This document shows positions 1 to 34,008 of a DNA stretch of 34,008 nucleotides, piece after piece. Origin of the DNA: a virus. The position numbers were made by a program, and so were the translations under genes. The DNA lies in the IMG/VR virus record IMGVR_UViG_3300025536_000009, positions 1 to 34,008 of that record. One strand, given 5' to 3'. Each line of letters begins with the position of its first letter. Within the stretch, counting starts at the first letter, position 1. Below the pieces are notes generated by a model. The model did not search any database and was not told the DNA's origin. It saw only the letters and a list, made by a program, of their open reading frames with translations.

Positions 1-127
1 AGACCGTCTTGTCATCACCGAACCGGGCAACGTCCAGTCCGGTCCGTCTCTTGTTCATGTCCTTCACAACCGTCAGCCGTCTCTCTTCAGACATGGCTGC
101 TTCAACCTTCCAGAGTGGAATCAGAAC
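1..127. repeat. Terminal duplication. Bases 1-127 are identical to 33882-34008, so the window is a closed 33,881-bp circle (or circular permutation) opened inside terL
   Basis: Direct comparison of both ends: agaccgtcttgtcatcaccgaaccgggc...ccagagtggaatcagaac occurs at both, with a constant offset of 33,881. Confidence 0.95.
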
Positions 128-946
128 GTCATCAGCGTCTTCAGGGAAGTTGCCTTCAACACGGCTCATCCACATAGGGGAGTTGATGCCCCACTGCAAG
201 GCACGCCGGTATGCCCATTGTGGAGTGATCAGGAACGGGAACGGCACCGGCATTGATTCAAGCTTCCCGGCATTGCCAAGCTCAATGAGCTGCTCTGCAT
301 TCTTGATCCCGTTCAGTTGGAAGTTTGGAGTGTCCCATGCACTGATGTGGATCTTGCCGGTTGTTGGATCCTTGAAGCTCTTGGCAAAGCGTCCCATTGG
401 ATTGGTAGGGTTCCCAAGCAATAGGATCCTTGCATGTTGAGAGGTTGTCACACCGTCAATGGCATCATAGATCTTCTCAGGAATACCGGATGCTTCATCT
501 GCTATGACAAGAATGTGTTCAGCGTGGAAGCCTTGAAAAGCATCACCGTCTTTGGTGGAGAGTCCCACTGCATACCACTTCTCATCCACCCGGAGATTGG
601 GAGTCTTGAGCATCTTCCCGGCAAGCCGGACCTTGCTCTTGTTCATGGCATCCCTCATCTCCTTCCACATCATCTTCTCAACCTGCCGGAAGGTTGGAGC
701 GGTGGTGATCACTATGGAGTTCTGGAATGAATTGAGGAACCACAAAGCGGTCCGGGATCCAACAAAGGTCTTGCCGATACCGTGACATGACCGGGCACAC
801 GTCTCTGCATGATCACGGACTGAGTTCATGATCTGCTCTTGACCGGACCATATAGAGTCTCCAAGCACTTCCTCAACAAAGAACCGGGGCTTTGTCTGAA
901 GAGCGGTGATCAGATCTGCAGCGTCATTAGGACTTATCTTTGCCAT
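1..946 (-). CDS. terL: Terminase large subunit, N-terminal ATPase part. It continues through the circular junction into 33364-33881 (487 aa in total)
   Basis: Own reverse translation from the ATG at 946: MAKISPNDAADLITALQTKPRFFVEEVLG..ARSCHGIGKTFVG (Walker A-like)..EHILVIADEASGI (Walker B-like). There is no stop down to base 1. 946+518 nt = 488 codons, in frame with the 33364-33975 ORF. It is missing from the ORF track because it is open at the window edge. Confidence 0.85.
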   Translation of the reverse strand, partial: MAKISPNDAADLITALQTKPRFFVEEVLGDSIWSGQEQIMNSVRDHAETCARSCHGIGKTFVGSRTALWFLNSFQNSIVITTAPTFRQVEKMMWKEMRDAMNKSKVRLAGKMLKTPNLRVDEKWYAVGLSTKDGDAFQGFHAEHILVIADEASGIPEKIYDAIDGVTTSQHARILLLGNPTNPMGRFAKSFKDPTTGKIHISAWDTPNFQLNGIKNAEQLIELGNAGKLESMPVPFPFLITPQWAYRRALQWGINSPMWMSRVEGNFPEDADDVLIPLWKVEAAMSEERRLTVVKDMNKRRTGLDVARFGDDKTV

Positions 947-1580
947 CTAGCACTTCCTTTGCCTTCTCATGAAGCGTCTCAATTGCAACACCAAGCCTGT
1001 CACCTCTTGGATCAGAGAGTCCCTTCACGTCAGACGGAAGTCCAACAGTTAAACGCTCACCCTCAATGACTAGCTTTGAAGCCTTTGCAAGAGCTTCCAG
1101 ATTCTTTGCTGCCCACTCATCCATTGATAGAGTCTCAACCGCTTTGGTGATCTTCTCAGAGAGTGTGTTCAGCAGTGTGGAGTGCTTATTGGTCAAGGCA
1201 GTGATGAGATCCTCACGGTCCTCACCGGCTGCAGCTATGACATTAGACTCTGTTTTTTTGATGTACTCTTGGCGTTCTTCTGCCCACTTCTCATTCTTGC
1301 AGTGCTTTGCAATGGCACTCCTTGACACCTTGAATTGCTCTTCTAGGGAACGGTGAGTGGCTTTGGGATCCGTGACATAGACTGTCTTGATTGCACTCCA
1401 ATCAATGTTGCTGCCGGACTTCTGGACCTTCCTGACGGGCATTGTGGCTTTGTTGGCTTTGTCCTTCTGAGACTTGGACCTCTTGTTGTCTGCAACAACC
1501 TTCTTCACCACATCAGCAACGGCAGGTGTTGGTGCCACCTGCTTCTTCTTCCTGACTATGATGATCTTCTTGCCTGCCAT
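927..1580 (-). CDS. terS: Terminase small subunit (putative)
   Basis: Lies immediately upstream of terL and overlaps it by 20 nt. Start taken at ATG 1580 (MAGKKIIIV, RBS agaaggacaactc); the track start at 1601 is a TTG. Basic N-terminus, HTH-like HRSLEEQFKVSRSAIAKHCKNEKW, helical C-terminus. Confidence 0.6.
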   Translation of the reverse strand: MAGKKIIIVRKKKQVAPTPAVADVVKKVVADNKRSKSQKDKANKATMPVRKVQKSGSNIDWSAIKTVYVTDPKATHRSLEEQFKVSRSAIAKHCKNEKWAEERQEYIKKTESNVIAAAGEDREDLITALTNKHSTLLNTLSEKITKAVETLSMDEWAAKNLEALAKASKLVIEGERLTVGLPSDVKGLSDPRGDRLGVAIETLHEKAKEVLDGKDKS

Positions 1581-1600
1581 GAGTTGTCCTTCTGCTATCA

Positions 1601-1630
1601 ATTATAGCCACAAGCATTGACAATTGACAG
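1601..1630 (-). promoter_or_regulatory. Putative late-operon promoter upstream of terS (GCTTGTGGCTATAAT box)
   Basis: Minus strand reads ctgtcaattgtcaatGCTTGTGGCTATAATtgatagcagaaggacaactcATG. TATAAT lies at 1606-1601. It shares the GCTTGTGCTAT(A/C/T)AT box with 11839, 12595 and 13177. The -35 is poor and the TG is displaced by one base, so it may depend on an activator. Confidence 0.45.
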
Positions 1631-1636
1631 AGTAGG

Positions 1637-1873
1637 CTATCTCATGATGAGACTATACAGTCCCCATGCAATGATTCCTATGACTGCAACTGCAGCGATT
1701 GTGACACCTATTCCAATGATGAGCAGTGCTATGCCATGAGCAATGAGCAACAGTCCATCCCGTATGATCAGCATCCAGACTTTGCGATTCTCACGCTTCA
1801 GATCTTTGGCTGTCTTCCTTCTGCTGATTCTGAGATCCCGTTGGATCCGTGCTTCTTCTTCAGAACTATTCAT
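1637..1873 (-). CDS. Small membrane protein (basic N-terminal region, two hydrophobic helices)
   Basis: Start chosen at MNSSEEE (ATG 1873), preceded by ggagacaccatca and overlapping the upstream stop (ATGAATAG). C-terminal WMLIIRDGLLLIAHGIALLIIGIGVTIAAVAVIGIIAWGLYSLI. Confidence 0.6.
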   Translation of the reverse strand: MNSSEEEARIQRDLRISRRKTAKDLKRENRKVWMLIIRDGLLLIAHGIALLIIGIGVTIAAVAVIGIIAWGLYSLIMR

Positions 1874-2258
1874 TGATGGTGTCTCCATCAGCCACCGGGT
1901 AGACACGGCGTGTCACGGTGTCAAACTCCCCGATCTGCTGCCAATTCTTCCTGACGGATCCCTTGAATAACTTTTTGAGTGGCAGTCCAATGAAGAACTT
2001 GAGCCACGTCCAGACGGTCAGCTTCTTGTAGACCTGAGTCACTATGCCAAGCCGGGGGAACCATATGAGCAGCAGCGTCTTGAACGCCGGTGCAATGGTG
2101 TGGCTGACTATCTTGTATTGTGGCAGCACTCCCTGCAGGTGCATGGTGAGCCTGACCTGATTCACGGACTCTCCCCGTGTGACATAAACGGTGAGCTGAT
2201 CTTCCGGCGTGTTCACCTTCAGTGGCTCTTCCAATAAAATGATATGAAGTTTTTTCAT
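1866..2258 (-). CDS. Hypothetical protein, 130 aa, with hydrophobic/aromatic central segments
   Basis: ATG preceded by aaaggagaccaagcacaATG, the same RBS string as at 12616-12635, and by a TGCTATAAT promoter at 2284-2292. Confidence 0.65.
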   Translation of the reverse strand: MKKLHIILLEEPLKVNTPEDQLTVYVTRGESVNQVRLTMHLQGVLPQYKIVSHTIAPAFKTLLLIWFPRLGIVTQVYKKLTVWTWLKFFIGLPLKKLFKGSVRKNWQQIGEFDTVTRRVYPVADGDTINE

Positions 2259-2283
2259 TGTGCTTGGTCTCCTTTGCCCCTCT

Positions 2284-2299
2284 ATTATAGCACTTGTGC
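2284..2299 (-). promoter_or_regulatory. Leftward extended -10 promoter (gcacaagTGcTATAAT)
   Basis: Plus strand attatagcacttgtgc, which reads gcacaagtgctataat on the minus strand, 26 nt upstream of the ATG at 2258. Confidence 0.5.
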
Positions 2300-2309
2300 T
2301 TCAGGCAGA

Positions 2310-2400
2310 GTTGTCCACAATTCTTCATTCAATGATCAATGACTTGCCATCAGATATGGAACCAAAAGTTGTCCCCAATTTTTGCCCGGTTGTCCACAAT
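2310..2400. repeat. Three copies of the operator-like palindromic motif GTTGTCC(A/C)CAAT
   Basis: gttgtccacaatt at 2310-2322, gttgtccccaatt at 2368-2380, gttgtccacaat at 2389-2400. The core TTGT-CC-ACAA is an inverted repeat. Copies 2 and 3 are 21 bp apart. Confidence 0.6.
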
Positions 2401-2612: not shown

Positions 2613-2642
2613 TAAAAATAGTATAGCAAGAAGGTGGTCAGG

Positions 2643-2942
2643 ATGCAAGGAATCAACTCAATAATCAATACCAATATCAATACCCTAAGCTCAAAGAGAT
2701 TCAATACCAATACTATTGATATTGATGATAAGACTAAGAGTCATATTGGTATTGAGAATAAGGCAAGGGATCTGATGAAGAAGCTTGGTGCCGGTGAAGG
2801 CTCATTGGAGTTCTTCTGCATGGCATTCCATAAGCTGCCGGAAGGGACCGTCAACCGGCTTGCAGGTCTTGCCCGTGATCCCGGTGTCAGGAATCCCGGT
2901 GCATACTTCAACACGTTGGTCCGGAGAGAATTGGCAAAATAA
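2643..2942 (+). CDS. Hypothetical protein, first rightward gene. Its 5' third carries AT-rich iterons. Possible origin-associated or replication-organizer-like protein (weak)
   Basis: ATG 2643 is preceded by aaggtggtcagg; the track start at 2634 is a GTG. The C-terminal half has genome-typical codon usage and ends ..GVRNPGAYFNTLVRRELAK. My recollection of DnaD/DnaB_2-type C-termini is only tentative. An alternative start is ATG 2775. Confidence 0.5.
   Translation: MQGINSIINTNINTLSSKRFNTNTIDIDDKTKSHIGIENKARDLMKKLGAGEGSLEFFCMAFHKLPEGTVNRLAGLARDPGVRNPGAYFNTLVRRELAK
2665..2755. repeat. Iteron cluster TCAATACCAATA(T/C): three direct cores plus one inverted copy in an AT-rich stretch (candidate ori)
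   Basis: tcaataccaatat at 2665-2677, tcaatacc at 2677-2684, tcaataccaatac at 2701-2713. Inverted copy atattggtattga at 2743-2755. Tandem attgat-attgat at 2715-2726. Confidence 0.55.
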
Positions 2943-3056
2943 AAAGCACCAACAAGGTGTGCTCTTTATAGTGCCGGTGATCCCGTGAAGGATCCAAAGA
3001 GGGAGACCAATGCACAAAAGCGTGAGCTAAAGACATAACCTCACCCGGCACTTCTC

Positions 3057-3065
3057 ATTATACCA
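3057..3065 (-). promoter_or_regulatory. Candidate antisense (leftward) extended -10 promoter TGgTATAAT
   Basis: Plus strand attatacca, which reads tggtataat on the minus strand. An operator-like tccacaatt (plus aattgtgga, 3078-3086) sits at about the -35 position. Confidence 0.3.
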
Positions 3066-3107
3066 GTCCCCTGTCAGAATTGTGGATAAGAATAAGCAAT
3101 AATGTCC

Positions 3108-3137
3108 TTGACATGGCTTGAGCGGTTGCGATATTAT
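3108..3137 (+). promoter_or_regulatory. Early/middle promoter cassette 1 (TTGACA ... AGCGGTTGCGATATTAT)
   Basis: ttgacatggcttgAGCGGTTGCGATATTAT, followed by an A/C-rich leader and aaggagaccat before ATG 3175. Confidence 0.65.
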
Positions 3138-3174
3138 GAGAGTACAAACAACTAAGGCAAAGGAGACCATTGCC

Positions 3175-3372
3175 ATGACAACAAAACATTCAACATTATA
3201 CGAACTCACACACCCTCTCAGTGGCATGGTGATGAGCTTCATCAGCAGCGTGCAGAACGCCTTTGACCAATACCAAGTGAACCGGATGAAGAAGCAAGTG
3301 CTTGCACGCCGGTTCAACAATCTGACTGATCCAACATTCTTGGACCGTGCAGTGAAGGGAGAATCAAAGTAA
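3175..3372 (+). CDS. Hypothetical protein, 65 aa
   Basis: ATG preceded by aaggagaccattgcc. The track start at 3118 would lie inside the promoter. Confidence 0.6.
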   Translation: MTTKHSTLYELTHPLSGMVMSFISSVQNAFDQYQVNRMKKQVLARRFNNLTDPTFLDRAVKGESK

Positions 3373-3605
3373 TGTCAGAAGACAAGAAGATCCTTCAGGC
3401 AACTGCCACTGAATCAGTGGATGCAGTGCTGAAGCTCACCCGGACAATCATGGAGTTTGAATCAGCAAGCTTCTATGGTCCTGACATCACTGCAGGTGAA
3501 GCGTCAAGAATGGCACTGATCCTCATTGATAACTTGAGTGAAGATGTCAAAGCCGTTGACGGCAAACTGCTCTCAGATCTACTTGAGCAAGTGAGGGCTG
3601 AATAG
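3372..3605 (+). CDS. Hypothetical acidic protein, 77 aa
   Basis: TAATG start/stop overlap with the upstream gene; RBS gggagaa. Confidence 0.7.
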   Translation: MSEDKKILQATATESVDAVLKLTRTIMEFESASFYGPDITAGEASRMALILIDNLSEDVKAVDGKLLSDLLEQVRAE

Positions 3606-3607
3606 TC

Positions 3608-3886
3608 ATGGCTGAAGAGAAGAAGTATGTCAAGCATGACTACATTGACGGCTGCTTGTATATGCTCAGGGACACCATCACGGTCCATCAGAAGGATCAG
3701 GTTGATGAGTTCCCTTCAGGTGAAGTCTACATCTATGACGGTGAGAACTTTGTCAGCACCCGTGACGGGGCAAAGCTTGGCAAGGCGATCATCCGGAAGA
3801 CCAAGAATGAGATGATGCCACCAACCGTGTGGAAGCAGCGTGGTCTGCATTGGGTTGATCCCCGTCCGAAGGGAGCCAAGTCATAA
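3608..3886 (+). CDS. Hypothetical protein, 92 aa
   Basis: ORF with a gaggg RBS, tightly packed. Confidence 0.7.
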   Translation: MAEEKKYVKHDYIDGCLYMLRDTITVHQKDQVDEFPSGEVYIYDGENFVSTRDGAKLGKAIIRKTKNEMMPPTVWKQRGLHWVDPRPKGAKS

Positions 3887-4092
3887 TGGACTACATCTCA
3901 GAGAAGCAGATGCTTGCATTGGTGAAGCTCTCTCTTGACTACAACACTCAAGTGACCGGAATTGCCATTCAGGTGCTCAACTCAAAGCACGGCATCAAGC
4001 ACAAGGAATTGCAGAAGACTCTTCAGCAATACAGTGCAGACTATAACAAACGAATTGAACAGATCATGGCTGAAGGAGACCAATCATCATGA
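3886..4092 (+). CDS. Hypothetical protein, 68 aa
   Basis: TAATG overlap; RBS aagggag. Confidence 0.65.
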   Translation: MDYISEKQMLALVKLSLDYNTQVTGIAIQVLNSKHGIKHKELQKTLQQYSADYNKRIEQIMAEGDQSS

Positions 4093-4376
4093 GTCCAAAA
4101 TACAAACTCTCAAAATATGTTATCTTCCGGGATCACACCGGCAAGGAGCAGACGCTCCTGCAGGGACAGATCTTCACTTGGAATCAGCACCGCTTTGTGA
4201 CCGCTGATCATGACCTTGCAGTCATTGAGATCTCACGGGCAAAGCTCAGGGCTGCCGGTGCCAAGATGATCCCTTGTGATTCTGCAGGCAAAGAACTTGA
4301 TCTCTCACCAACCGGACCGGACATTGTGATGCCTGAACCAATGGTGCCGGAGAAGAAGGCTGCATTCTCACTATGA
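4089..4376 (+). CDS. Hypothetical protein, 95 aa
   Basis: ATGA overlap; RBS aaggagaccaatcatc. Confidence 0.7.
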   Translation: MSPKYKLSKYVIFRDHTGKEQTLLQGQIFTWNQHRFVTADHDLAVIEISRAKLRAAGAKMIPCDSAGKELDLSPTGPDIVMPEPMVPEKKAAFSL

Positions 4377-4549
4377 CACGCCGGACCAAGTGGGCAATCA
4401 CACTGACGGTCATTGGCTTCCTGCTCCTATGTGCATTCATGCTGATCCTTATGGACGGTGGTGAGATGATGATGGAGTACACGGCAGCATGGATCCTCAT
4501 TGGCTTTGCCGGAGCGGTGCTCTTCAATCTAGGAACGGCACTGCTATGA
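4373..4549 (+). CDS. Small membrane protein, 58 aa (below the ORF-track cutoff)
   Basis: Own translation: MTRRTKWAITLTVIGFLLLCAFMLILMDGGEMMMEYTAAWILIGFAGAVLFNLGTALL. ATGA overlaps at both ends. Two hydrophobic helices. Confidence 0.55.
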   Translation: MTRRTKWAITLTVIGFLLLCAFMLILMDGGEMMMEYTAAWILIGFAGAVLFNLGTALL

Positions 4550-4968
4550 AGAAGATGACTCTGCATGGAGCCACTATCAGCTTCAATGGCATTGAGATCC
4601 CCGGCAAGCGTGACGTTGAGCTGTTGGTTGATGACACTCCAAAGGTGTGGGACATCACCCCACCACAAGGATGGAACTGGACGGAAGATGATTGGAGAAT
4701 CTTCAACTTCTGCCGGGACTTAGACTTCAGAGGTGGAGTTGTGAGCGGTGGGCTTTTTGATCAGTATGTGCTTATTCAATACAACCGGAAGAAGCCGTCA
4801 AAGAGCTTGATCATAATTGAGAGAGTCATGGCTGACTGGACCAAAGAGAAGGTCAACATGCCGGATCACCCGTTCCCTCAACATGCTAAGTGCAGGAGCG
4901 TGGTGACAATACCAGATGATGACTTTGAGCTTCCGTCATACGCTGCCATCTATAGGAAGCAGCCATGA
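4546..4968 (+). CDS. Hypothetical protein, 140 aa
   Basis: Start taken at MKKMTLHG, coupled to the upstream stop. Confidence 0.7.
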   Translation: MKKMTLHGATISFNGIEIPGKRDVELLVDDTPKVWDITPPQGWNWTEDDWRIFNFCRDLDFRGGVVSGGLFDQYVLIQYNRKKPSKSLIIIERVMADWTKEKVNMPDHPFPQHAKCRSVVTIPDDDFELPSYAAIYRKQP

Positions 4969-5255
4969 ACGGGGTGCTTGAACTGAGGGAAGATCAGATC
5001 AACTTCTTGGTGGATTCTGAATGGACCTGTCCTGAGTGTGGTCATGATGAGGTGAAGCTCTATGTGCACCCTCACAAACATGCCGGGATCTATGAGTGTC
5101 AGAATGAAGAGTGCTTTGCAACGTGGGATTGTGAGCACCCGGACACTGAGACTGAGATAGTTGAGGATCCACCAATGCACCCGGAGCAGACGGCTGTCTA
5201 TCAAAGCAAGGTGGTGTTCTGCATCCTTTGCGGATCAGGGGTTGATCATGATTGA
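4965..5255 (+). CDS. Zinc-ribbon-like protein, 96 aa
   Basis: CPECGH..(20)..CQNEEC and a C-terminal CILCGSG cysteine pair; ATGA overlap. Confidence 0.6.
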   Translation: MNGVLELREDQINFLVDSEWTCPECGHDEVKLYVHPHKHAGIYECQNEECFATWDCEHPDTETEIVEDPPMHPEQTAVYQSKVVFCILCGSGVDHD

Positions 5256-5481
5256 TGAACAGAAGATCCCAATGGGAACCTATTCAGTGAGCTTCCAAAC
5301 GTGGTGGAGACACCCGTTCACAAGCAAGAATCACATGGACCACCGTGTCTTCAGCCTATATGAAGACATGTCAGAAGCAACGCTTTGTGATCAGATTGCT
5401 CAATGGATGACGGATCATTCCGGTGGTGCCAAGTGCCACATGGTGAAGATCTATTCCATCCATAAGCTTGACATTCAATAA
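5248..5481 (+). CDS. Hypothetical protein, 77 aa
   Basis: Start at MIDEQKI, 8-nt overlap with the upstream gene. Confidence 0.6.
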   Translation: MIDEQKIPMGTYSVSFQTWWRHPFTSKNHMDHRVFSLYEDMSEATLCDQIAQWMTDHSGGAKCHMVKIYSIHKLDIQ

Positions 5482-5497
5482 GCGGTTGCGATATAAT
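5468..5497 (+). promoter_or_regulatory. Early/middle promoter cassette 2
   Basis: ttgacattcaataAGCGGTTGCGATATAAT, then leader ..actacaaactaagacatag and aaggagaccatcc before ATG 5533. Confidence 0.65.
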
Positions 5498-5532
5498 CAG
5501 ACTACAAACTAAGACATAGAAGGAGACCATCC

Positions 5533-6426
5533 ATGTCAACAGAACAAGATCAACAATCACTTGAGGATGCTCAGGTCAATGATCACTCTGATGCTCAAGA
5601 AGCTCAGATTGTGACACCACCTGCAGCTCCTGCAGCAGATGATAAGCCTGCAGACACACCTGCAGCTGAAGCACCAAAGCCACCGGCAGGCGTGCTCAGT
5701 GATGAAGACAAGCGTCAGATGACACTTGCTGCCCGGAACACGGAGACAAGCATCCTGAGTCCTGTCATGTATAACCAAAGCAAGCTAGTTGCCAAAGACT
5801 TCTATGATTCAGGTGCACTTCCAAAGCATCTGCAGAATGAGACTCAAGCCTTTGTGACAATCATCACGGGTGCTGAGATGGGGATGAAGCCAATGCAGGC
5901 AATCCAATCTCTCTACATCATCAATGGCATCATCACCCTTTGGGGCAAAGCGGTGCCACGTCAGATCAAAGCTCACGGCTACAAGTTCAAGTTCAAGGAT
6001 GAGACTCAAGAATCCTGCACCGTTGAGGTGTGGAAGGAAGATATGTATGGCAACAAGATTGAAGAGTATGAAGAGACCTTCAACTATCAAGATGCCGTTG
6101 ATTCCAAGTACACCGTTGACTCATATGGCAAGACCAAAGTTGGTTGGTTGCCGGGTCAGAACCGGAAGCTGAAGATGAGATACAACGTGCTGAGTGCACT
6201 GATCAAGACATACATTCCTGAAGTTCTTGGTGAAGCTGCAGATGTGGCTGAGGTTGCTCAGGACTTCATTGACATTGATGAAGCAGGCAACGTCAAAGTT
6301 GATCCAAAGACTGCCATCCGTGAAGCTCAGAAGCGGAAGCAGGCTGAAGCAACCACTACCGTGAAGCATACTCCAAAGGCTGTTGCTCAGGAGCAGGGTG
6401 AGAAGAAGGAAGATGAAGCAGTATAA
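5533..6426 (+). CDS. Single-strand annealing protein, RecT/Red-beta-like (putative)
   Basis: Low-complexity acidic/Pro-Ala N-terminus, then AFVTIITGAEMGMKPMQAIQSLYIINGIITLWGKAV..., which resembles RecT-type cores. Adjacent to a PD-(D/E)XK exonuclease. Family assignment is from memory. Confidence 0.5.
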   Translation: MSTEQDQQSLEDAQVNDHSDAQEAQIVTPPAAPAADDKPADTPAAEAPKPPAGVLSDEDKRQMTLAARNTETSILSPVMYNQSKLVAKDFYDSGALPKHLQNETQAFVTIITGAEMGMKPMQAIQSLYIINGIITLWGKAVPRQIKAHGYKFKFKDETQESCTVEVWKEDMYGNKIEEYEETFNYQDAVDSKYTVDSYGKTKVGWLPGQNRKLKMRYNVLSALIKTYIPEVLGEAADVAEVAQDFIDIDEAGNVKVDPKTAIREAQKRKQAEATTTVKHTPKAVAQEQGEKKEDEAV

Positions 6427-7108
6427 GATACAGAATGACGGCAAACTTCACACCCGGTATTCAGAGCTGACTCAATGCACTGATGCCGGGATTGTCCGGG
6501 TGCTGCAGCTGAGAGCCGGTGAGCTGAAGAAGTTCACCACCGCTTCAACTCAGTTTGGATCCACCCGTCATGAGATGTTTGAAGAAGATGTGGCAGAGAC
6601 CGGCAACGTGCCGGAAGTATTCACTCACCATGAGGTGACACGGGAAGAGGTCCGGGCAACCGGCAAGACTCCCTATGAATATCAGTTCCTGATTGGCTCT
6701 ATGCCGGTCAGCCATTGTGAGCAAAGCTTTGCCACTGAACTCTTCCCCGGTGTGGTGATCCACTTCACCCCGGATGAGATTGCTTCAGAGCTTCAGACGA
6801 TCATTGACACCAAGACTATGATCCCCAATGAAGCCGGGAAGGTGAATCCAAACAAGTATCTGAAGAGCATTCAGCTCAAGCTCTATGCCCTGCTGCTGAG
6901 ACCTCACGGGATCACCATCACAAAGGGACTGTTCTTGATTGAGCAGTGGACCCGTGACTATAAGGACATCACTGACTATCATGTGGTTCCTCAGAAGATT
7001 GGTATCATGGAGATGGGAGAAGCTCAAGCTTGGGCAAAGGAGCGTGTCTCCCGTTTACAAACAGGCATTGAATGGTGGAATAGCCAAGAAGGAGTTGCAA
7101 AGATATGA
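6413..7108 (+). CDS. PD-(D/E)XK exonuclease (lambda Exo/RecB/Cas4-like), partner of the annealase
   Basis: Start at MKQYKIQ. FGSTRHEMFEED, then ..IIDTKT.. and QLKLYALLL (a QxxxY-type motif), in the order typical of this fold. Confidence 0.55.
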   Translation: MKQYKIQNDGKLHTRYSELTQCTDAGIVRVLQLRAGELKKFTTASTQFGSTRHEMFEEDVAETGNVPEVFTHHEVTREEVRATGKTPYEYQFLIGSMPVSHCEQSFATELFPGVVIHFTPDEIASELQTIIDTKTMIPNEAGKVNPNKYLKSIQLKLYALLLRPHGITITKGLFLIEQWTRDYKDITDYHVVPQKIGIMEMGEAQAWAKERVSRLQTGIEWWNSQEGVAKI

Positions 7109-7323
7109 GTATAATTGGCAAGCATGACGTTGGAGTTGAGGTGCCTTACATCCCCTCACGGGCTGAACGCCGGGCACGGGCAAAGAAGGCAGGTGTCTTC
7201 AAGCACAAAGGTGGTTGGAAGCACGTCAATGATGCTGCCTATATGCAGCGGAACAATGCCATTCAGAAGGCTGTTGATCTGCAGCACAAGAAGCAGAACG
7301 CTCCAAAACAGAAGGGAGAGTGA
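7105..7323 (+). CDS. Hypothetical basic protein, 72 aa
   Basis: ATGA overlap; RBS gaaggag. Confidence 0.6.
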   Translation: MSIIGKHDVGVEVPYIPSRAERRARAKKAGVFKHKGGWKHVNDAAYMQRNNAIQKAVDLQHKKQNAPKQKGE

Positions 7324-26404: not shown

Positions 26405-26691
26405 GAGAACTCCTTCAGCTCAACGGTCTGACCGGCAAGATCATGAGTTGAGTCTTCTAAGAATTGGATTCTGCCATCAGTCACAAAGGAGTGGCAGCGT
26501 CTCTCCTGTCTCCATTCAGCAAACTCTTCAGAAGCATCAGGATTGGCAGGGTATGTGACAAGCAATGACGGTGTGAATGTTGGCTTCTCTTCATTGCCGT
26601 TGAAGGACCAACGCTCATCAATCTGATGGACATCTTTGCAGCCGGGACAACTGAATGCCCATCCACCTTTGAGCTTATCAAGAACTGCCAT
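26395..26691 (-). CDS. Small Cys/His phage protein, 98 aa (resembles the family I recall as DUF6527)
   Basis: Start at MAVLDKLKGGW (TGAcATG junction with the upstream gene). FSCPGCKDVHQID..WSFNGNEEKPTFTPSLLV..CHSFVTDGRIQFLEDSTHDLAG. Confidence 0.55.
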   Translation of the reverse strand: MAVLDKLKGGWAFSCPGCKDVHQIDERWSFNGNEEKPTFTPSLLVTYPANPDASEEFAEWRQERRCHSFVTDGRIQFLEDSTHDLAGQTVELKEFSWA

Positions 26692-26692
26692 G

Positions 26693-27448
26693 TCACACGT
26701 CCGGGTTGATGGGGAAGCTTCCAGATCCGGGATGACGGAAGAACTTCTCATGCTCATCCGTGCCCACAAGATATGGATCATCACCAAAGATGGTCCCCTT
26801 ACTTTGAACCACTACCGTGCCACCGGTGCCACCATTGCTCTGAGTATTAGGAATCAAAGGATCCTCAAGCAGTGCATCAAGCAGTGAGGTCAGCTCACTC
26901 TTTGCCGTGCTCATCTTCTTATAGCCATCCTTTGAAGTCTCTTCAGTGTCAGCACTGGATCCATAGTCACGGGTCAATGCAAGACCGGCAGCATAGAGCT
27001 TCACGATCATCTGAATGCTTGGATAGTAGTCAGCATGAGTGGCATTGTCAGTATCAAAGGGAGTGGTGATTCCATTGCTCTTGAAGGCACGGTGAACAAT
27101 GCCGGTTGCTTGAGCAATAACGCTGTCAACATACCGGTCAGACATCTGACTATGATGATAATAGATGTGCATGTTCTCAGTGTCTGCAGCAGGTGCATTC
27201 ACCAACGTGATCACACCATTCTCAAAGTCAATGATGTTCACGTCTGCAGGAGCACCGTCAACATACACGGTGACATCTTCTGCATTGGTGAGTTCATCAT
27301 AGTTCCGGTCAACAATAGGCTTGTGCTCTGTCATGAACACTTTGTTGTTGCCGTCTAAGATACCAGTAAGGGAACCGTTCTCTTCAACATGTTGAAAACC
27401 GGCTTCTTCCCGGACATCCTGACGTGTAATGTAGGGAACGGTTGCCAT
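26693..27448 (-). CDS. Head completion/connector-type protein, 251 aa (assigned by position)
   Basis: Lies downstream of the capsid genes; no motif recognised. Confidence 0.45.
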   Translation of the reverse strand: MATVPYITRQDVREEAGFQHVEENGSLTGILDGNNKVFMTEHKPIVDRNYDELTNAEDVTVYVDGAPADVNIIDFENGVITLVNAPAADTENMHIYYHHSQMSDRYVDSVIAQATGIVHRAFKSNGITTPFDTDNATHADYYPSIQMIVKLYAAGLALTRDYGSSADTEETSKDGYKKMSTAKSELTSLLDALLEDPLIPNTQSNGGTGGTVVVQSKGTIFGDDPYLVGTDEHEKFFRHPGSGSFPINPDV

Positions 27449-27456
27449 GTGGGATC

Positions 27457-28164
27457 CTATTCTTCAGTCTTAGCTGATGCTTCTTCTATTGCTTTGATGA
27501 GGTCAGCTTTGTTGTCTTCAGTGTAGGAGTCAAGATTCTCAACACCCTGCTCTTCAGCAATCTTCTTGAGGTCATCAAGTGGCATGTCCTCTGAGATGGT
27601 GACTTCCTCTTCATCAAGGTTGTCAGCTAGTTCCTGAGCTTTGTTCAGTTCAGCAAGAGCTTCATCTTCAGTCTCACCGAATCCGGCAAGTGACTCTTCC
27701 AAGTTGGTGAATCCTTCATCTTGAACGGCAACGATCTTGTCACCATCCTTGAAGTAGCGGATGCCATCAGTGACGTGCTCTTCATAAGATGTTCCACCTG
27801 CAGGATCTTGATTCTTTGCAGCTTCAAGAGCGTCAATCACGCCTTGCTTTGAGCGGATGCCGGTGACATCAACTTCAGCTTCAGCAGCCATTGCCTGAAG
27901 ATCCTTCAGTGACTTGCCGTCATATGGACTTGGCTCTTCCTGTTCATCCTCATTGGACTCAGGAGCTGATTCACCGGGAGCGGTGACAGTTGCACCTTCA
28001 GGTGCTTCAGCAACAAGGATCCACACGTCAGCTTCAAGAGCAGCAAGCTGTTCTTTGGTGAGTTCAAAAATGCTAGTCACACCCTTCTCAAGTGTAACGC
28101 CTGCACGGGTACGCCCTGCAGCATTGAATCCGGGTGCTAGTTTGACTTGGTATAGCTTGCTCAT
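27457..28164 (-). CDS. Acidic protein with two HeH/Rho-N-like motifs, 235 aa
   Basis: Start at MSKLYQV after gaaggagatcaaccac. KSLKDLQAMAAEAEVDVTGIRSKQGVIDAL and LDDLKKIAEEQGVENLDSYTEDNKADLIKAI. Confidence 0.6.
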   Translation of the reverse strand: MSKLYQVKLAPGFNAAGRTRAGVTLEKGVTSIFELTKEQLAALEADVWILVAEAPEGATVTAPGESAPESNEDEQEEPSPYDGKSLKDLQAMAAEAEVDVTGIRSKQGVIDALEAAKNQDPAGGTSYEEHVTDGIRYFKDGDKIVAVQDEGFTNLEESLAGFGETEDEALAELNKAQELADNLDEEEVTISEDMPLDDLKKIAEEQGVENLDSYTEDNKADLIKAIEEASAKTEE

Positions 28165-28243
28165 GTGGTTGATCTCCTTCTTATTATTGATCTCTTTATG
28201 GGGAAGACGGTGCCTGTCTTCCCCACTCATGACCAATTATAGA

Positions 28244-29125
28244 CTAGGCTACAACTGAGATGTAGGCTTTGCGGTATTCACCATAGCCTGCATTGCCACG
28301 AAGGTATGAACCATAGAAGTTCTCCTTGCGGAAGAAGTCTTCATGAGACCCTGCTTCTTGTGCTTCAAACGGAACCTCTTCACGGACCTGCCATACGAAT
28401 GGACGGGCTGTTGGAGAGCTAACATCAAGGAGTGCCCAACGGTTGCTTGCAACGTCAGCCGTCACAAGGATCTCTGCAGCTTGATAGTTAGGGTTGTTCT
28501 CACCACCGGCAAGGTGCTCTTTGAGCAAGATGCCTTCTGCAAGTGCACGCTTGCTAGGTGGAACCACCAAGAGGAACTTAGGAGCACGGTTGAGGACTTT
28601 GCCTGCATCTGAGCGTGCTGTCTCAATTGCAAGACGGGCTGTTGCAAAGGTTGTTGCAGACAATTCTGCAGTTCCCAAGTTGCTCCAGTTCTCAGTACCA
28701 TCTGAGCCGTTACCCTGAACGTGATCAGTATCAGCGAAGTTCTGACCATCATATGCAACAGAACTGTCAGCCAAGTTGATCAGGCTGAACACCTTCTCAT
28801 CCGGGAACGTCCTGAAGTTCTCACCCAAGATCCGGACCATGTTGTTGTAAGTGGCAATCTTGCTGTCACGGATGTCAGCACGTTTGACACGAACACTCTC
28901 TTCAAACTCAATGTTCTTGATCTTGAAGTCATAGTTCTTCAGACCTTGTGGCTGACGCTCACCATGCATCTCACGCATTCCGGCAAGACCACCAAGCCAA
29001 CCATACTCTTCACTACCGCCGTCACTTGGAACAAGTGCAGCGATCCGGTCCCATACCGGTGTTGCAGCGTCATAACCTTCTGCAAACTGGACACGGAATC
29101 CTTCTAGTAAGCTAGTTTCATTCAT
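28244..29125 (-). CDS. Major capsid protein, Mu gpT-like
   Basis: ..SEEYGWLGGLAGMREMHGERQ.. and the overall length and order (protease, small protein, capsid) match Mu-type head modules. Confidence 0.8.
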   Translation of the reverse strand: MNETSLLEGFRVQFAEGYDAATPVWDRIAALVPSDGGSEEYGWLGGLAGMREMHGERQPQGLKNYDFKIKNIEFEESVRVKRADIRDSKIATYNNMVRILGENFRTFPDEKVFSLINLADSSVAYDGQNFADTDHVQGNGSDGTENWSNLGTAELSATTFATARLAIETARSDAGKVLNRAPKFLLVVPPSKRALAEGILLKEHLAGGENNPNYQAAEILVTADVASNRWALLDVSSPTARPFVWQVREEVPFEAQEAGSHEDFFRKENFYGSYLRGNAGYGEYRKAYISVVA

Positions 29126-29153
29126 CTCAATTCTTCACTTTCTGCTTTAGCTA

Positions 29154-29567
29154 TTAGGCTGCTGCTGTTACAAGTGCCACACGGACACGGGTTGCTGATA
29201 CTACTTCAACGATACGTCCGGCTTTGATACCAGATGCAAACGTTTCAACGTTGTTGTCATCTACCCACTGGACAAGATCACCAACAATGCTGTCTGCAGC
29301 ACCACCGGCAGGGTAGCCAAACTCAAACGTGCCTGAACGCTGCACACGGATCCGGGATCCGGCAGGTGCATTGGTAAGGTCTTTAGTTTCAAGGGCAACT
29401 CCTGCAGTCACACTTGAAGCGGTTGTTACTGAACGGCTCAGGAGACCAGTTGTAGGACTGAACACAACTGCACCACCGGTGACGAACTTGCCACCGACGG
29501 TTGCTTTGAGTTCTGCAACTTTGTCTTCACGCCATTTTGGATCACGGGCTGCTGTAAGATTAGCCAT
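29154..29567 (-). CDS. DUF2190-like small head protein (possible decoration/cement protein)
   Basis: 137 aa, G/A/V-rich beta protein between the protease/scaffold and major capsid genes, which is the typical position for that family. Confidence 0.55.
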   Translation of the reverse strand: MANLTAARDPKWREDKVAELKATVGGKFVTGGAVVFSPTTGLLSRSVTTASSVTAGVALETKDLTNAPAGSRIRVQRSGTFEFGYPAGGAADSIVGDLVQWVDDNNVETFASGIKAGRIVEVVSATRVRVALVTAAA

Positions 29568-29569
29568 GA

Positions 29570-30886
29570 TTATTCCTCATCTTCCTTCTTATTATCTGCT
29601 GTCACATCCGGGTACATTTCCGGGTGCTTGGCAACATTGTCATTGTAACGTTCTTTAGAGACTCCAGTGGCTTGCAATCCCGCTTTTGCTTCTGCACTCA
29701 GTTTATCATAGGGAGTTGCATCTTTGTCAACACCTTCACCACCGGCACCACCACCATTGCCACCATCTTCTGAATAGTTGACAACTTTTGGAGCGTGCTT
29801 GGTGAACTCTTTGAGCATCTCAGAGACTGGAACCTGAGTGGACTTGCCGTCCTTTGAGAACTCAACCTTCACATCACCGGACATTGCAAGAGCTTTGAAT
29901 GCCTTCTCCTGAGCAGGAACAATCTTGCCTGCTTTGAGAAGCTTCTCATATTCTTGATCAACTTCCTTCTTGCGGTATTCTTGAATCTGCTTCTGAGCTT
30001 TGGCAAGTTCAGCTTTGGTGCCTTCCTCTTCAGCAGCTGCAGCATCAGCATCTTCCTTCTCTTTTTTCTCACGGGCTTCACGCTCTTCATCAGTCTCTTC
30101 TTCTTCAGGAGCGGTGGATTCTGCAATGAGAGTCTCAACAACTTCCTTCTGATCTGCAGGAACTTCTACTTCAGCACCGGCTTCAACAGTCACGGTCTTG
30201 TCTTCATCACCTTCTCTGAAGGTAACTTCAACCGGATATTCTTTGTCATTGATGATCTTAACTTTGTCCATATCACTCTCCTTGCTTAATTCTTTTTTGA
30301 TCCCTGACCTGCTCAACATTATAGCATTAGCACCATAATTGGTGGCAACCTCTGCTCTGCATTCAGCAGTCACTTTGGCAAACGCTTCAAACGGAGTCAT
30401 GTCTTCAATATAAGGGTTGTTGACCAATGCAACGTGGTAGATTGCCGGTCCCTTCTCATCACCCTCTTTGGTGATCCAGTTCATTGTGAAGCCAATTGAG
30501 ACATCCCATATCAGGTCAGCTTCAATCTTCTCAACGGTCTCTTCATCACGGATGTCAAGGATTGCATCAATCCCGGCACCGTCTGCAGAGAGCATCATGT
30601 CAATGACTTCACCACGATTCTTGTCAGGATCATCAGTGTGGGAAGCAGGAACATAGACACGTCCAACCGTGCCGTCCTTGAAGTTCTGCAGGACTGATTC
30701 ACCCCATGCTTCATCAAGGTGCAGGAAGTATTCAGGGAACCATTGGTCAGCGTACTCACCAAAGTTGATGATCCTCTTCTTGTAGAGTTTGCCTTTGGCG
30801 TTTGGATATTCACTGTCACCGGCTGCATACCTGACTGCCTTTGAGTCATCAGGTTGCAATACTGTATAGAGCTTTTTGTCCTTCAT
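29570..30886 (-). CDS. Prohead protease/scaffold protein (Mu gpI-like), 438 aa, with a nested in-frame scaffold start at 30271
   Basis: ATG 30886 (MKDKKLY); the track start at 30907 is a TTG. N-terminal ..VPASHTDDP..WDVSIGF..HVALVNNPYIEDM. The C-terminal half is an E/K/A-rich coiled coil. Confidence 0.7.
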   Translation of the reverse strand: MKDKKLYTVLQPDDSKAVRYAAGDSEYPNAKGKLYKKRIINFGEYADQWFPEYFLHLDEAWGESVLQNFKDGTVGRVYVPASHTDDPDKNRGEVIDMMLSADGAGIDAILDIRDEETVEKIEADLIWDVSIGFTMNWITKEGDEKGPAIYHVALVNNPYIEDMTPFEAFAKVTAECRAEVATNYGANAIMLSRSGIKKELSKESDMDKVKIINDKEYPVEVTFREGDEDKTVTVEAGAEVEVPADQKEVVETLIAESTAPEEEETDEEREAREKKEKEDADAAAAEEEGTKAELAKAQKQIQEYRKKEVDQEYEKLLKAGKIVPAQEKAFKALAMSGDVKVEFSKDGKSTQVPVSEMLKEFTKHAPKVVNYSEDGGNGGGAGGEGVDKDATPYDKLSAEAKAGLQATGVSKERYNDNVAKHPEMYPDVTADNKKEDEE

Positions 30887-30915
30887 ATCTTTACTATATC
30901 CCTTCAATGCTTATG

Positions 30916-33333
30916 TTACAACGCTTGATTCTTAGCCACAACTTCTTCAGGAATGTCCGGGATCCCGGTGGTCTCAGGAATATCAGTCTGATCCTTCTTG
31001 ATTGCAATCCATATGCAACGGCAGAAGCCGTGTTCAGGTGGCTGATATGGAGAAGCTTTGTATTCCTCATGCTCAACAACCGTTCCATCCATTGCTTCAC
31101 AAAGCTCACACGTCACGTCATCCAAGATTGCTGAATACTGATAGACCTCAATGTCCTCTTTGGCTGTCTCAAAGACATCATCACGGGACCGGTTGATTGC
31201 CTGAGCAACTGCTATCACGCCGGTGAGTGAGATGGTCTTCTGATAGAACTGCTCAAAGTCCTCACCAAGCAAGGCAGCAATCTCTTCAGGTGTGGCAAAC
31301 TCATGACCCCGTGAGAGCTGTCCCTTGTGGAACTCTGATGTGACCTTCTGCTTGATGATGAATGTGAGATCACTGAACTGCTTGTCAGCAATGCTCTTGC
31401 CGTTCTGCTTGAAGTATTCCTTTGACTCTTTGGGAGTGGTTGGAATGCCAATGTCAAGGTCATCAGACGTGATCTTCTTCCCGGCATTGTAAGTCTCAAG
31501 GCTCTGATCAGTAATGGTCTGAGCATACTTGTCAGCACCCGTCAGGCTGAAGTCTTCAAGCTTGGTGATGTCACCACCTTCAAGGATTGGCTTGATGTCT
31601 TCCAGTGCCTGAGCAACCACGTCATCAAAGACCGGCTTCATGGCAGCATCAAACTTCTTCTCTTGACTGATGATCTTGTCTTCTATTGCAGCAAGGTTGG
31701 TGTTGGCTTCAGCAGGTGAGAGATCCCGTCTCCAAGCAAGCTCCTGCTTCTCAGTGTCAAAGTGCCGGGCACTTGCACCACGCCGGTGACTATGACTCAG
31801 TTTTTTTTTTGACCGGCTGAGGGCAGCAGCAGTTGGCGTGAATGTCTTGGCAGGTTCAAGGATCCCATCAATCTCTTCATCTGATAGGGTAGGGAATGAA
31901 GCAACAATCACGGCACGTCCGGTGTCATATGGCATCTGACCCGTGACAATCTGAGTGACAATGGAGAGCAGGCTTGCAATCTGAGCACCGTTCAAAGCGG
32001 TCTTTGCAATCTCTTCCACTTCAGCCACTACTGCAGCACCGCCTTCAGGCAGCTCTTCACCGGTATCATTCACGTCATCAGCCTTCAGTTCAGTCAGGTC
32101 AATGTCAAGCCGGTCTGCAACCTGCTCAACCAAGCCGTCCACAAAGTCCTTCCGGAGATCAGTCTTCTTCACGATCTCAAGGAAGATGCTCTCAATGAAG
32201 TCAGCGGTGTCATCTGACATGTCATTGAAGCGGAACTCAGGATAGTATTGAGTCTCATAGTTGTAGTCAATCAGCTGAGGGATCAGGTATGAATTGATAT
32301 GCTCTTCAACTTCAGCCATCATTCCCCGGAGTGCCATCATGAACAGGTCAGCGTGTGACTTGCTCAATGCAAAGGAGCCGGTCTTGTCCCCGGATCCAAG
32401 CAGGATGAACTGAGCCAAGACGGAACGTGCCATCTGAGCATCTTGGTGATCAATGCCGGGCATAGGATCAATCCGTCCCTTGCCTGCATCATAAGGGTTC
32501 AGCTTATAACCGGTAGGGACAAGCACTGCTGAGTCAATGCCAAAGCGGTCCATTGCCTGCAGGTTGGCACGCTGAGTGGACTCAGTGTCATCATTGCCTT
32601 CTTGAACCTCAAGCATCTTTGGTGGCATGGCACCCTTCTCAACGCTCTGCTCATAAAGGTAGTAGAGACGGCGTTTGCGGTCCCAATGGTAGTATGCAGA
32701 TTGGAATGCTGACTGACCATAGATCTCATCCTCATCTTTGTTGTAAGTGTAGAGGAAGCACTTCTCAACAGGGATCTGAACGGTGATGGTCTTCTTCTGT
32801 TCCTTTGAATAATAGCTTTGCTCAAAGCCTGCAAAGCCACCCTTGTCATCTCTGAGGACAGTGACTTCAGTGACATCACGGAATGCAATCTTCCTATATA
32901 CAATCTTGCCCTGCTCATTCAGAGTCCACACCTTCTCTGCAATGGCATAGCCTTCAAGCACTGCTTTGAGTGTCCGGGCAATGACCAAGCGGAATGGAGT
33001 TGTCATGCCACCCTTGTGAGGTGGACGGGTGAAGTTATCAAGGACGTGATCAGCCTGCTCTTTGGCTGCCTTCTGCAGACCTTCCGGAACCTCTTCAGGA
33101 TCCAGTCTCCAACTGTTTGACATGATAGGCATTCTCAGGATCTGATAGAGTGAACGGACCGTGCCGTCATTGTCCTTCATGAACCGGAGATCTTTGATGC
33201 TGACTTTGCTGCTAGTCTTCTTCTTGACGGTGAGCATGTCTGCAAGACTACCACCAGAGGTGCCAAGCTCACTGTCAATGTCAGGCTTCTCAGTCCGGGC
33301 AAAGTTCTTCTTGTTTGTTGCTTGTATGATCAT
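30916..33333 (-). CDS. Portal protein (Mu gp29/DUF935-like, about aa 1-510) fused in frame to a Mu gpF/SPP1 gp7-like minor head protein domain
   Basis: Lies immediately downstream of terL. The C-terminal ..AQAINRSRDDVF..YQYSAILDDVTCELCEAMDGTVV..YQPPEHGFCRCIW is the MuF-type signature. Confidence 0.8.
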   Translation of the reverse strand: MIIQATNKKNFARTEKPDIDSELGTSGGSLADMLTVKKKTSSKVSIKDLRFMKDNDGTVRSLYQILRMPIMSNSWRLDPEEVPEGLQKAAKEQADHVLDNFTRPPHKGGMTTPFRLVIARTLKAVLEGYAIAEKVWTLNEQGKIVYRKIAFRDVTEVTVLRDDKGGFAGFEQSYYSKEQKKTITVQIPVEKCFLYTYNKDEDEIYGQSAFQSAYYHWDRKRRLYYLYEQSVEKGAMPPKMLEVQEGNDDTESTQRANLQAMDRFGIDSAVLVPTGYKLNPYDAGKGRIDPMPGIDHQDAQMARSVLAQFILLGSGDKTGSFALSKSHADLFMMALRGMMAEVEEHINSYLIPQLIDYNYETQYYPEFRFNDMSDDTADFIESIFLEIVKKTDLRKDFVDGLVEQVADRLDIDLTELKADDVNDTGEELPEGGAAVVAEVEEIAKTALNGAQIASLLSIVTQIVTGQMPYDTGRAVIVASFPTLSDEEIDGILEPAKTFTPTAAALSRSKKKLSHSHRRGASARHFDTEKQELAWRRDLSPAEANTNLAAIEDKIISQEKKFDAAMKPVFDDVVAQALEDIKPILEGGDITKLEDFSLTGADKYAQTITDQSLETYNAGKKITSDDLDIGIPTTPKESKEYFKQNGKSIADKQFSDLTFIIKQKVTSEFHKGQLSRGHEFATPEEIAALLGEDFEQFYQKTISLTGVIAVAQAINRSRDDVFETAKEDIEVYQYSAILDDVTCELCEAMDGTVVEHEEYKASPYQPPEHGFCRCIWIAIKKDQTDIPETTGIPDIPEEVVAKNQAL
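31801..31810 (-). other. A10 homopolymer (T10 on the plus strand) at the portal/MuF domain junction; candidate slippage site
   Basis: Minus strand cgg tcA AAA AAA AAA ctg agt cat agt (codons 508-511). With A11 or a -1 shift it reads act gag tca TAG. With A9 or a +1 shift it reads aac TGA. Confidence 0.5.
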
Positions 33334-33363
33334 TGGTCAAATGCCCTCTCTTTACTCATTATC

Positions 33364-34008
33364 TTACCTGTTTTCATTGTGGTTATGCAATATCTCATCA
33401 TAATTCCCGGCAGTTATAACAGTCCCACCCTTCTTCTTACGCTTGACATAGTAGTCTGAGATTGCTAGGAACACGGCATCTGCTTTGTCCGGGGACTGAC
33501 CGTGAGTCCTTGCTTTGACTTCATCCTTCTGCTCCACTGCAATCCTTCCACCAATGTACTTGAACTTGATATTGCTCAACTGAGCAAGCAGCTCTTCATC
33601 ATAAGGAAGGTATACATCATCTATCATCTCACGGAACTTCCAAGCAAGCTCACTTTTGAGGTTGGCAAAGGTCTCTTTGTCTTTGGCAACGTTCTGCACA
33701 TTGATGCCATAGACATCAAGCTTCTGCTCTGAAGCGTTGTCCGTGACACCACCACCAACACCAATGTCATCCACAAGATAGGGATAGAGTCCCATGACCT
33801 TGAGCTTTGAGAAGGTCTCAGTGGTGCTCTTCTTGGCAAGCTGAACCAATGGCTCAAACCAAAAGCCATACCGTGTGGCAAAGACCGTCTTGTCATCACC
33901 GAACCGGGCAACGTCCAGTCCGGTCCGTCTCTTGTTCATGTCCTTCACAACCGTCAGCCGTCTCTCTTCAGACATGGCTGCTTCAACCTTCCAGAGTGGA
34001 ATCAGAAC
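33364..34008 (-). CDS. terL: Terminase large subunit, C-terminal nuclease part (33882-34008 duplicates 1-127)
   Basis: ..LDVARFGDDKTVFATRYGFWFEP..VDDIGVGGGVTD.. is typical of the RNase H-like terminase nuclease. The frame is open to the window end and continues in 1-946. Confidence 0.85.
   Translation of the reverse strand, partial: VLIPLWKVEAAMSEERRLTVVKDMNKRRTGLDVARFGDDKTVFATRYGFWFEPLVQLAKKSTTETFSKLKVMGLYPYLVDDIGVGGGVTDNASEQKLDVYGINVQNVAKDKETFANLKSELAWKFREMIDDVYLPYDEELLAQLSNIKFKYIGGRIAVEQKDEVKARTHGQSPDKADAVFLAISDYYVKRKKKGGTVITAGNYDEILHNHNENR
33882..34008. repeat. Second copy of the 127-bp terminal duplication
   Basis: Identical to 1-127. Confidence 0.95.

Follow-up and report, generated by a model that had tools for sequence, protein, structure and literature searches.

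Avoidance of restriction sites is a textbook anti-restriction strategy, and the avoidance of such sites and of palindromes in phage genomes was reportedly described by Sharp (1986) and by Rocha et al. (2001). Type III restriction enzymes require pairs of inversely oriented sites (PMC3874151), and in phage T7 all 36 CAGCAG sites lie in one orientation, so that EcoP15I cannot cut the DNA (Meisel et al. 1992, reviewed in PMC3874151). In a survey of phages and their hosts, avoidance was almost entirely confined to orthodox Type II sites and was strongest in the class of non-temperate double-stranded DNA phages without a modification system; avoidance of Type III sites was very rare, no systematic strand-asymmetric avoidance was seen, and phages protected by active means are not expected to purge sites (Rusinov et al. 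2018, PMC6286503). In Neisseria, the specificities of the Type III Mod proteins ModD1 (CCAGC) and ModA11 (CGYAG) have been determined by experiment (PMC4417156). Here we analyze the 34,008 nt of the IMG/VR virus record IMGVR_UViG_3300025536_000009 (hereafter the window), which is a complete 33.9-kb genome in a circular or circularly permuted assembly and belongs to an uncultured, siphovirus-like tailed phage that is probably virulent. The window lacks a large vocabulary of short words on both strands, and further asymmetric words are missing in just one orientation, a pattern that we think probably reflects passive escape from many host restriction specificities through the purging of their target sites.

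An exact count returned no copy of GGCC, CCAGG, CCTGG, GCGC, CGCG or TCGA, the words whose absence the original prediction had claimed from reading the letters. The contexts on which that claim was based were likewise as described: after GGC only A, T and G occur, and after CCAG only A and T; the base before CGC is A or C throughout, and T never precedes CGA. Expectations were drawn from three null models, namely a synonymous shuffle in which synonymous codons are permuted within each gene, keeping the proteins and the per-gene codon usage (1000 runs), a dicodon shuffle, which in addition keeps every dinucleotide count, and a maximal-order Markov model. GGCC (83 expected by the Markov model, ~94 by the synonymous shuffle with a lowest value of 72, and 60 by the dicodon shuffle with a lowest value of 41) and CCWGG (~61 by synonymous and 34, lowest 25, by dicodon shuffling) are robustly absent. 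The absences of GCGC (Markov 11.7; dicodon 14, lowest 6) and TCGA (Markov 0.2; synonymous ~116, lowest 93; dicodon 8.9, lowest 5) are significant. CGCG is absent as claimed but marginal on its own (Markov 5.7), as the dicodon shuffle expects 4.2 copies and some shuffles give 0; the word is also at zero in relatives where many more copies are expected. The dicodon shuffle further expects 36 copies of CCAGC and 13 of GAGGC, both observed at 0. Codon bias alone was rejected as the source of these absences, because neither shuffle yields the zeros of GGCC and CCWGG, and the codon-preserving check showed that the zeros of GGCC and TCGA are not approached in 1000 shuffles. Site-level selection, rather than codon bias, was thus correctly proposed, and the comparison with relatives and the mostly synonymous site losses described below point the same way. 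The assignment of TCGA to a TaqI-like specificity fared less well, since its absence is nested in, and inseparable from, a general, ~12-fold and strand-asymmetric loss of the trinucleotides TCG/CGA; TCGA, of which the Markov model expects just 0.2 copies, is an exception to whole-word specificity.

The five words first named are absent but form only a small part of the avoided set. On the + strand 9/256 tetramers, 116/1024 pentamers and 1035/4096 hexamers are missing, compared with 0, 0.1 and 53.5 in the synonymous shuffles. Of the six-base palindromes, 41/64 are absent (shuffle mean 3.5, maximum 9), among them GATATC, CTTAAG, GAATTC, GAGCTC, GCCGGC, CCCGGG and CGATCG, and 25 of the 41 contain no absent tetramer. 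CCCGGG and GCCGGC are at zero despite more than 300 copies of CCGG. Besides the five words, both strands of positions 1-34008 lack CTCG/CGAG, CGYAG/CTRCG, GCSGC and CCWWGG as well as the asymmetric pentamer pairs CCAGC/GCTGG (76 expected, as a total for the pair over both strands), GAGGC/GCCTC (54), CCTCC/GGAGG (62), CTGGC/GCCAG (61), CGCAG/CTGCG (59), GCCGC/GCGGC (46), AAATC/GATTT (60) and CATCG/CGATG (66). Of the 465 asymmetric pentamer pairs whose expected counts were high enough for the comparison, 41 fall below 0.1 of expectation in both orientations. Other words are sharply but incompletely depleted, such as GAAA/TTTC (0.08 of expectation), AAAT/ATTT (0.14) and TTAA (0.11), and the neighbors AAAG, CAAA, GAAG and GAAC are at their normal level.

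A second group of words is purged from one strand only, which is the strongest feature of the genome and one that the original prediction had missed. Four asymmetric pentamers among the 465 pairs are at zero in one orientation with their complements at expectation. On the + strand, ACAGC occurs 0 times (expected 26) and GCTGT 31 times (expected 32), CTCCG 0 (25) and CGGAG 25 (26), AACCC 0 (19) and GGGTT 20 (22), and AGCCC 0 (19) and GGGCT 14 (21). The last two combine into the degenerate motif ARCCC, with 0 copies (38 expected) against 34 of GGGYT (43 expected). Single-base variants of ACAGC and CTCCG, unless themselves avoided words, are found in about the expected number in both orientations, and the specificity is therefore sharp. 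The trinucleotides TCG (3 copies on the + strand) and CGA (62), and the tetramers CGCA (1) and TGCG (14), behave similarly. The genome consists of two opposed gene blocks (Table 1), which provide a control for gene orientation. Counts in the early (+) and structural (-) blocks are 0 and 0 for ACAGC against 7 and 23 for GCTGT, 0 and 0 for CTCCG against 11 and 13 for CGGAG, 0 and 0 for AACCC against 4 and 16 for GGGTT, and 0 and 2 for TCG against 15 and 42 for CGA. Because the sign is the same in both blocks, the bias follows the genome strand and not transcription or translation, and coding-strand asymmetry was rejected as its source. ACAGC, CGGAG and ARCCC fit the form of Type III sites in that they are asymmetric, 5 bp long and carry an adenine on the recognized strand. 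For these pentamer motifs the retained orientation is not selected against, unlike CGA.

We infer that restriction enzymes are the selective agent, as well as the class of enzyme behind each word. Selection would have stripped the genome of sites for many host restriction-modification (R-M) enzymes. Palindromic words of 4-6 bases and many asymmetric pentamers would have been removed from both strands, which would leave enzymes that cut at or close to a single site (Type II and Type IIS) without targets. ACAGC, CGGAG, ARCCC and the core CGA would have been purged in one orientation, such that the remaining copies all point alike, and Type III-like enzymes, which need two inversely oriented unmethylated sites, would be unable to cleave such DNA. 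Pfam and PHROGs searches detected no methyltransferase, base-modification enzyme, anti-restriction domain or integrase, and most early open reading frames (ORFs) match nothing; as no gene for modification or anti-restriction is detectable, the defense would be a passive one. The earlier proposal of passive evasion by a phage without a recognizable methyltransferase is in keeping with these domain scans. Its restriction to Type II specificities is too narrow, since the one-orientation purging points to Type III-like enzymes in addition.

Relatives of the phage show that the avoided words turn over between lineages. We found ~100 portal homologues, nearly all on metagenomic contigs of 33-38 kb, and compared 85 related loci, with profile scans giving 79 viral loci and 5 in genome collections. 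Three of these relatives, L087, L089 and L003, have portals 89%, 85% and 73% identical to that of the window. Counted as these loci are oriented (reverse-complemented with respect to the window), CCAGC/GCTGG stands at 0/0 in the window, 21/12 in L087, 0/0 in L089 and 0/33 in L003; CCTCC/GGAGG at 0/0, 10/13, 8/4 and 0/0; ACAGC/GCTGT at 31/0, 26/1, 25/1 and 27/26; and CGCAG/CTGCG at 0/0, 0/0, 0/0 and 11/0. CGYAG is kept in one orientation only in L003-L005, in its CGCAG and CGTAG forms alike, and is at zero in both orientations in the window, L087 and L089. In a different clade GAACC is at 0 and GGTTC at 19-25. The retained orientation in relatives is likewise equal in both gene blocks. Since Type III Mod proteins of Neisseria recognize CCAGC and CGYAG, words of this kind are realistic Type III targets; nothing about the host follows from this. 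Several words missing in relatives, GGATG, GACGC, GCATC, CTCTTC, CCCGC and CCTTC, match Type IIS sites.

More distant lineages differ in their absent palindromes. One has no CCGG, AATT near zero and GATC at 15 per kb; another has no CATG, CCGG, CGCG, GATC or TCGA, with GCGC near zero; in a third, CATG, CGCG, GCGC, GGCC, TGCA and CCWGG are at or near zero and GATC is present or absent. GATC tolerance switches quickly in this phage family: L080 and L083, with portals 93% identical, have 4.4 and 0 copies per kb. As side observations, the L080/L083 comparison covers 64 GATC sites in 14.5 kb and 1 in 22 kb, and L018/L081 and L019/L021 (73% identity) carry 9 and 0 per kb with the other absent palindromes common to both. 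A clade of 53% G+C, L055-L079 (IMG/VR 3300045988 and others, including two 7000000xxx identifiers; portal ~37% identical), is nearly free of word avoidance and could serve as an internal negative control; its member L058 lacks only GGATG/CATCC and GAAGG/CCTTC.

The way in which sites disappear was examined by aligning the window to L087 (82% nucleotide identity). Words present in L087 and absent from the window are conserved at 0/79 copies, compared with 52% for generic pentamers. The coding differences at these sites are purely synonymous in 55/73 cases, against a baseline of 47% for changed pentamers; loss and gain are not distinguishable from these two sequences alone. The cost of avoidance also reaches the protein level. 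The dipeptide Trp-Pro occurs 0 times in all predicted proteins (5.9 expected) and is the sole Trp-X dipeptide that never occurs, because TGG-CCN (TGGCCN) always contains GGCC. Trp-Pro is also missing in 17/17 portal homologues, which include GGCC-tolerant lineages.

The over-abundance of GATC and CCGG that had been noted is real: each occurs 310 times, where codon shuffling gives 215 copies of GATC (z about 10) and 166 of CCGG (z about 16), with CCGG present 8 and GATC 6 times in the first 600 nt, and GGATCC (43) and CTGCAG (77) do recur throughout. To a large extent, this excess is not a signal of its own. When synonymous codons were resampled under the sole constraint that the depleted words be held to no more than their observed counts, the expectation rose from 166 to 287-289 for CCGG (308 observed in this comparison), from 206 to 288-294 for TGCA (308), from 215 to 257-268 for GATC, from 17 to about 22-23 for GGATCC and from 32 to about 53 for CTGCAG. 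The greater part of the excess thus follows from the restricted vocabulary, for CCGG and TGCA mostly and for GATC about half. Since forbidding the depleted words is enough to lift the expectations of CCGG and TGCA in this way, we rejected positive selection as the chief reason for their excess. CANTG and TGNCA are strongly enriched genome-wide.

Several observations weigh against escape from restriction as the explanation. CGA is depleted ~7-fold even in its retained orientation (62 copies, ~415 expected), which a pure orientation model does not predict, and its core of 3 bp falls short of the Type III site form, being to our knowledge shorter than any known Type III site. GATC, GGATCC and CTGCAG keep a modest residual excess of 1.2- to 1.9-fold after conditioning on the depleted words, which the restricted vocabulary does not account for. 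Some depletion is also spread widely, as every TAA/TTA word is at 0.1-0.4 of expectation, the observed/expected ratios of TA and CG are 0.42 and 0.49, and that of TG/CA is raised to 1.46. This broad TA/CG depletion could come from general dinucleotide forces or from methylation followed by deamination, and need not be restriction-related. Because no host was identified by the searches described below, no avoided word has been matched to an encoded enzyme. Finally, an unrecognized anti-restriction protein may be present among the early proteins without assigned function.

The behavior of TCG/CGA also invites two other readings. In the first, a strand-specific process takes the place of Type III enzymes as the source of the one-orientation purging, either a site-specific nicking endonuclease, whose nicks would be harmless if all lay on one strand, or a nuclease attacking single-stranded DNA exposed in rolling-circle replication or injection. 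Frequent-cutting nickases such as Nt.CviPII, with the site CCD, suit a 3-bp core better than Type III sites do, and every purge can formally be described as a set of words missing from the + strand. However, the pentamer motifs have Type III-like length and asymmetry with adenine on one strand each, CCAGC and CGYAG are orientation-purged in relatives and recognized by Type III enzymes, and the finding of one motif fully absent, present in one orientation or unconstrained in three lineages fits enzymes that read duplex DNA. In addition, the genome has no strand skew beyond that linked to gene orientation. We therefore regard a strand-specific process as unlikely. In the second, the TCG/CGA pattern, together with the one-orientation purging of tetramers in relatives (CCAG 0 and CTGG 28 in L089; TTTC 1 and GAAA 13 in L087), could point to an undescribed orientation-sensitive defense that reads asymmetric words of 3-4 bp. 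Such words are shorter than any characterized Type III or Type ISP site that we know of, and we hold the existence of this defense to be doubtful.

Escape from restriction must also be set against an artefact of composition, arising from codon usage, from low CG and TA, or from context-dependent mutation such as the deamination of methyl-C to TG/CA. The dinucleotide ratios and the broadly depleted TAA/TTA words given above are in line with this, as are the near disuse of the codons TCG, CGA and GCG, the small Markov expectations of TCGA, CGCG and GCGC, and the zeros that CGCG reaches in some dinucleotide-preserving shuffles. The key words behave otherwise. GGCC, CCWGG, CCAGC, GAGGC and ACAGC are at zero where the dicodon shuffles expect 12-60 copies and never give zero, CCGG is enriched although it contains CpG, the single-base neighbors of the purged pentamers are at expectation, and the orientation bias is indifferent to the direction of transcription. 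Moreover, composition predicts that relatives share their missing words, which fails, since relatives that share 82% of their nucleotides do not avoid the same words. Taken together, these results exclude composition or mutation bias for the key words. Such bias may still have a share in the broad depletion of CG and TA, and as an explanation of the pattern it is very improbable. Least credible of all is that the phage avoids its own nuclease or packaging machinery or that the pattern is an assembly or sequencing artefact: many early ORFs have no known function, but neither idea has direct support, dozens of words would need dozens of specificities where only the terminase and the exonuclease-like and resolvase-like nucleases are recognized, relatives from other samples show a like pattern with other words, and an assembly artefact was rejected because two independent assemblies, from JGI and Logan, give the identical sequence.

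The ends of the window form an exact direct repeat that represents assembler overlap, leaving a unique genome of 33,881 bp with an even composition of 48.7% G+C. The 54 ORFs called cover 94% of the genome and fall into one + block, the remainder forming the - block; tRNA genes are not present in the genome. Functions were assigned from Pfam, PHROGs and precomputed Pfam matches (Table 1). A resolvase-like protein is also encoded in the + strand early block, and the - block includes further tail and baseplate proteins. The portal protein has 805 amino acids and joins a Mu-like or P23-45-like portal to a head-morphogenesis domain of the Mu-F (SPP1 gp7-like) type at its C terminus. Roughly half of its homologues can be aligned only across the portal half.

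Table 1. Positions of genes, gene blocks, repeats and other elements in the window
Feature	Position	Strand	Basis or detail
Exact direct repeat, 127 nt	1-127 = 33882-34008	.	
block continued across the assembly junction	1..2328	-	includes two small ORFs
Small-terminase-like ORF	927-1601	-	
GTTGTCCACAAT, three copies	2310-2321, 2368-2379, 2389-2400		divergent region between gene blocks
25-nt repeat (TAGTGTTCACACGAC...), two copies	2457-2481, 2598-2622		divergent region
Early/recombination gene block (probably)	2634..12580	+	ORF calls, PHROG matches; includes many small ORFs
Promoter-like element, four copies	3123-3134, 5483-5494, 7931-7942, 11516-11527	+	early block
RecT-like protein	5533-6426	+	PHROG
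Exonuclease-like protein	7965-8627	+	PHROG
TCG, three copies	13337..13339, 15573, 25144	+	all TCGT
Lysis and structural gene block	13613..33333	-	domain scans
Amidase endolysin	13613-15019	-	domain scans
Tape measure protein	21324-23531	-	domain scans
Tube (tail tube) protein	24212-25195	-	domain scans
Mu gpT-like capsid protein	28244-29125	-	domain scans
Protease	29570-30907	-	domain scans
Portal-MuF fusion	30916-33333	-	domain scans
Large terminase, spans junction	33364-34008 then 1-946 (N-terminal part)	-	

In the promoter-like element of the early block, the conserved spacer GAGCGGTTGCGA separates TTGACA from TATTAT, TATAAT or TATGAT. The spacer may act as an operator, and AGGAG follows ~35 nt downstream in 3/4 copies; the four copies supply 4/15 of the CGA trinucleotides of the + block. 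The two sets of repeats in the divergent region are candidate regulator-binding or origin repeats. Most genes with an ATG start are preceded by AAGGAG-, GAAGG- or GAGG-like ribosome-binding sites, a Shine-Dalgarno sequence that stops short of the canonical GGAGG, and GGAGG/CCTCC is at zero genome-wide on both strands.

No host emerged from the searches that were run. A megablast search with a 20-kb query found no match among the phages of INPHARED, a single-protein scan of IMG/VR gave none either, and tblastn with the portal returned only matches of at most 31% identity to actinophage and other portals and no close isolated phage. The five loci from genome collections are phage-sized contigs binned into metagenome-assembled genomes (MAGs) of Coxiellaceae, Planctomycetota and Patescibacteria, and we do not regard them as reliable host calls. 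Three of the family members, L082, L083 and L086 (GTDB genome contigs of 31-35 kb), lie inside Coxiellaceae and Planctomycetota MAGs, placements that are probably binning errors and neither prophages nor evidence of a host.

The relatives of this phage form a natural graded series from which rates of site loss and regain, and R-M specificities of uncultured hosts, might be read, and through their differing purged sets they bear on the question if phages can be tied to hosts by a motif fingerprint; host prediction from the pattern, as first suggested, is plausible. Known enzyme classes do not fully account for the behavior of TCG/CGA. On a broader, likewise doubtful reading, the sequences of this family alone could reveal more than 25 restriction specificities of uncultured hosts, Type III among them. 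The window also illustrates how far a proteome can be encoded while a quarter of the possible hexamers go unused.

Among described systems, there is a close likeness to T7 and EcoP15I, in that asymmetric sites are present in normal number and uniformly oriented, with the same proposed logic. The likeness is read here from sequence, and the pattern extends further than in T7, since at least three pentamer motifs and the CGA core are purged together, the bias is present in both of two opposed transcription blocks, and relatives show further motifs treated in this way. The agreement with the Neisseria Mod specificities lies in the words only: CCAGC and CGYAG, including its Y degeneracy, behave as units that are kept in one orientation in L003-L005 and absent from the window, but nothing ties the phage to Neisseria, and unrelated bacteria can share specificities. 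Ocr and ArdA DNA mimics, phage methyltransferases and hypermodified bases such as the hydroxymethylcytosine (hmC) of T4 presumably share the goal of escaping restriction; unlike these active strategies, the window encodes no domain of their classes that Pfam or PHROGs could detect. As in the Type II avoidance that has been surveyed, short palindromes are fully eliminated and the phage appears to be non-temperate and without a modification system. The scale is larger than in that survey (PMC6286503), with five palindromes of 4-5 bp at zero, 41/64 six-base palindromes and more than 100 pentamers missing, and this genome, like its relatives, clearly shows strand-asymmetric avoidance, together with what appears to be avoidance of Type III sites. 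Site avoidance and the strand bias of T7 are already known, and this genome is an extreme form of a known mechanism; what is new is the purging of multiple motifs by orientation free of the coding-strand confound, thanks to the two opposed transcription blocks.

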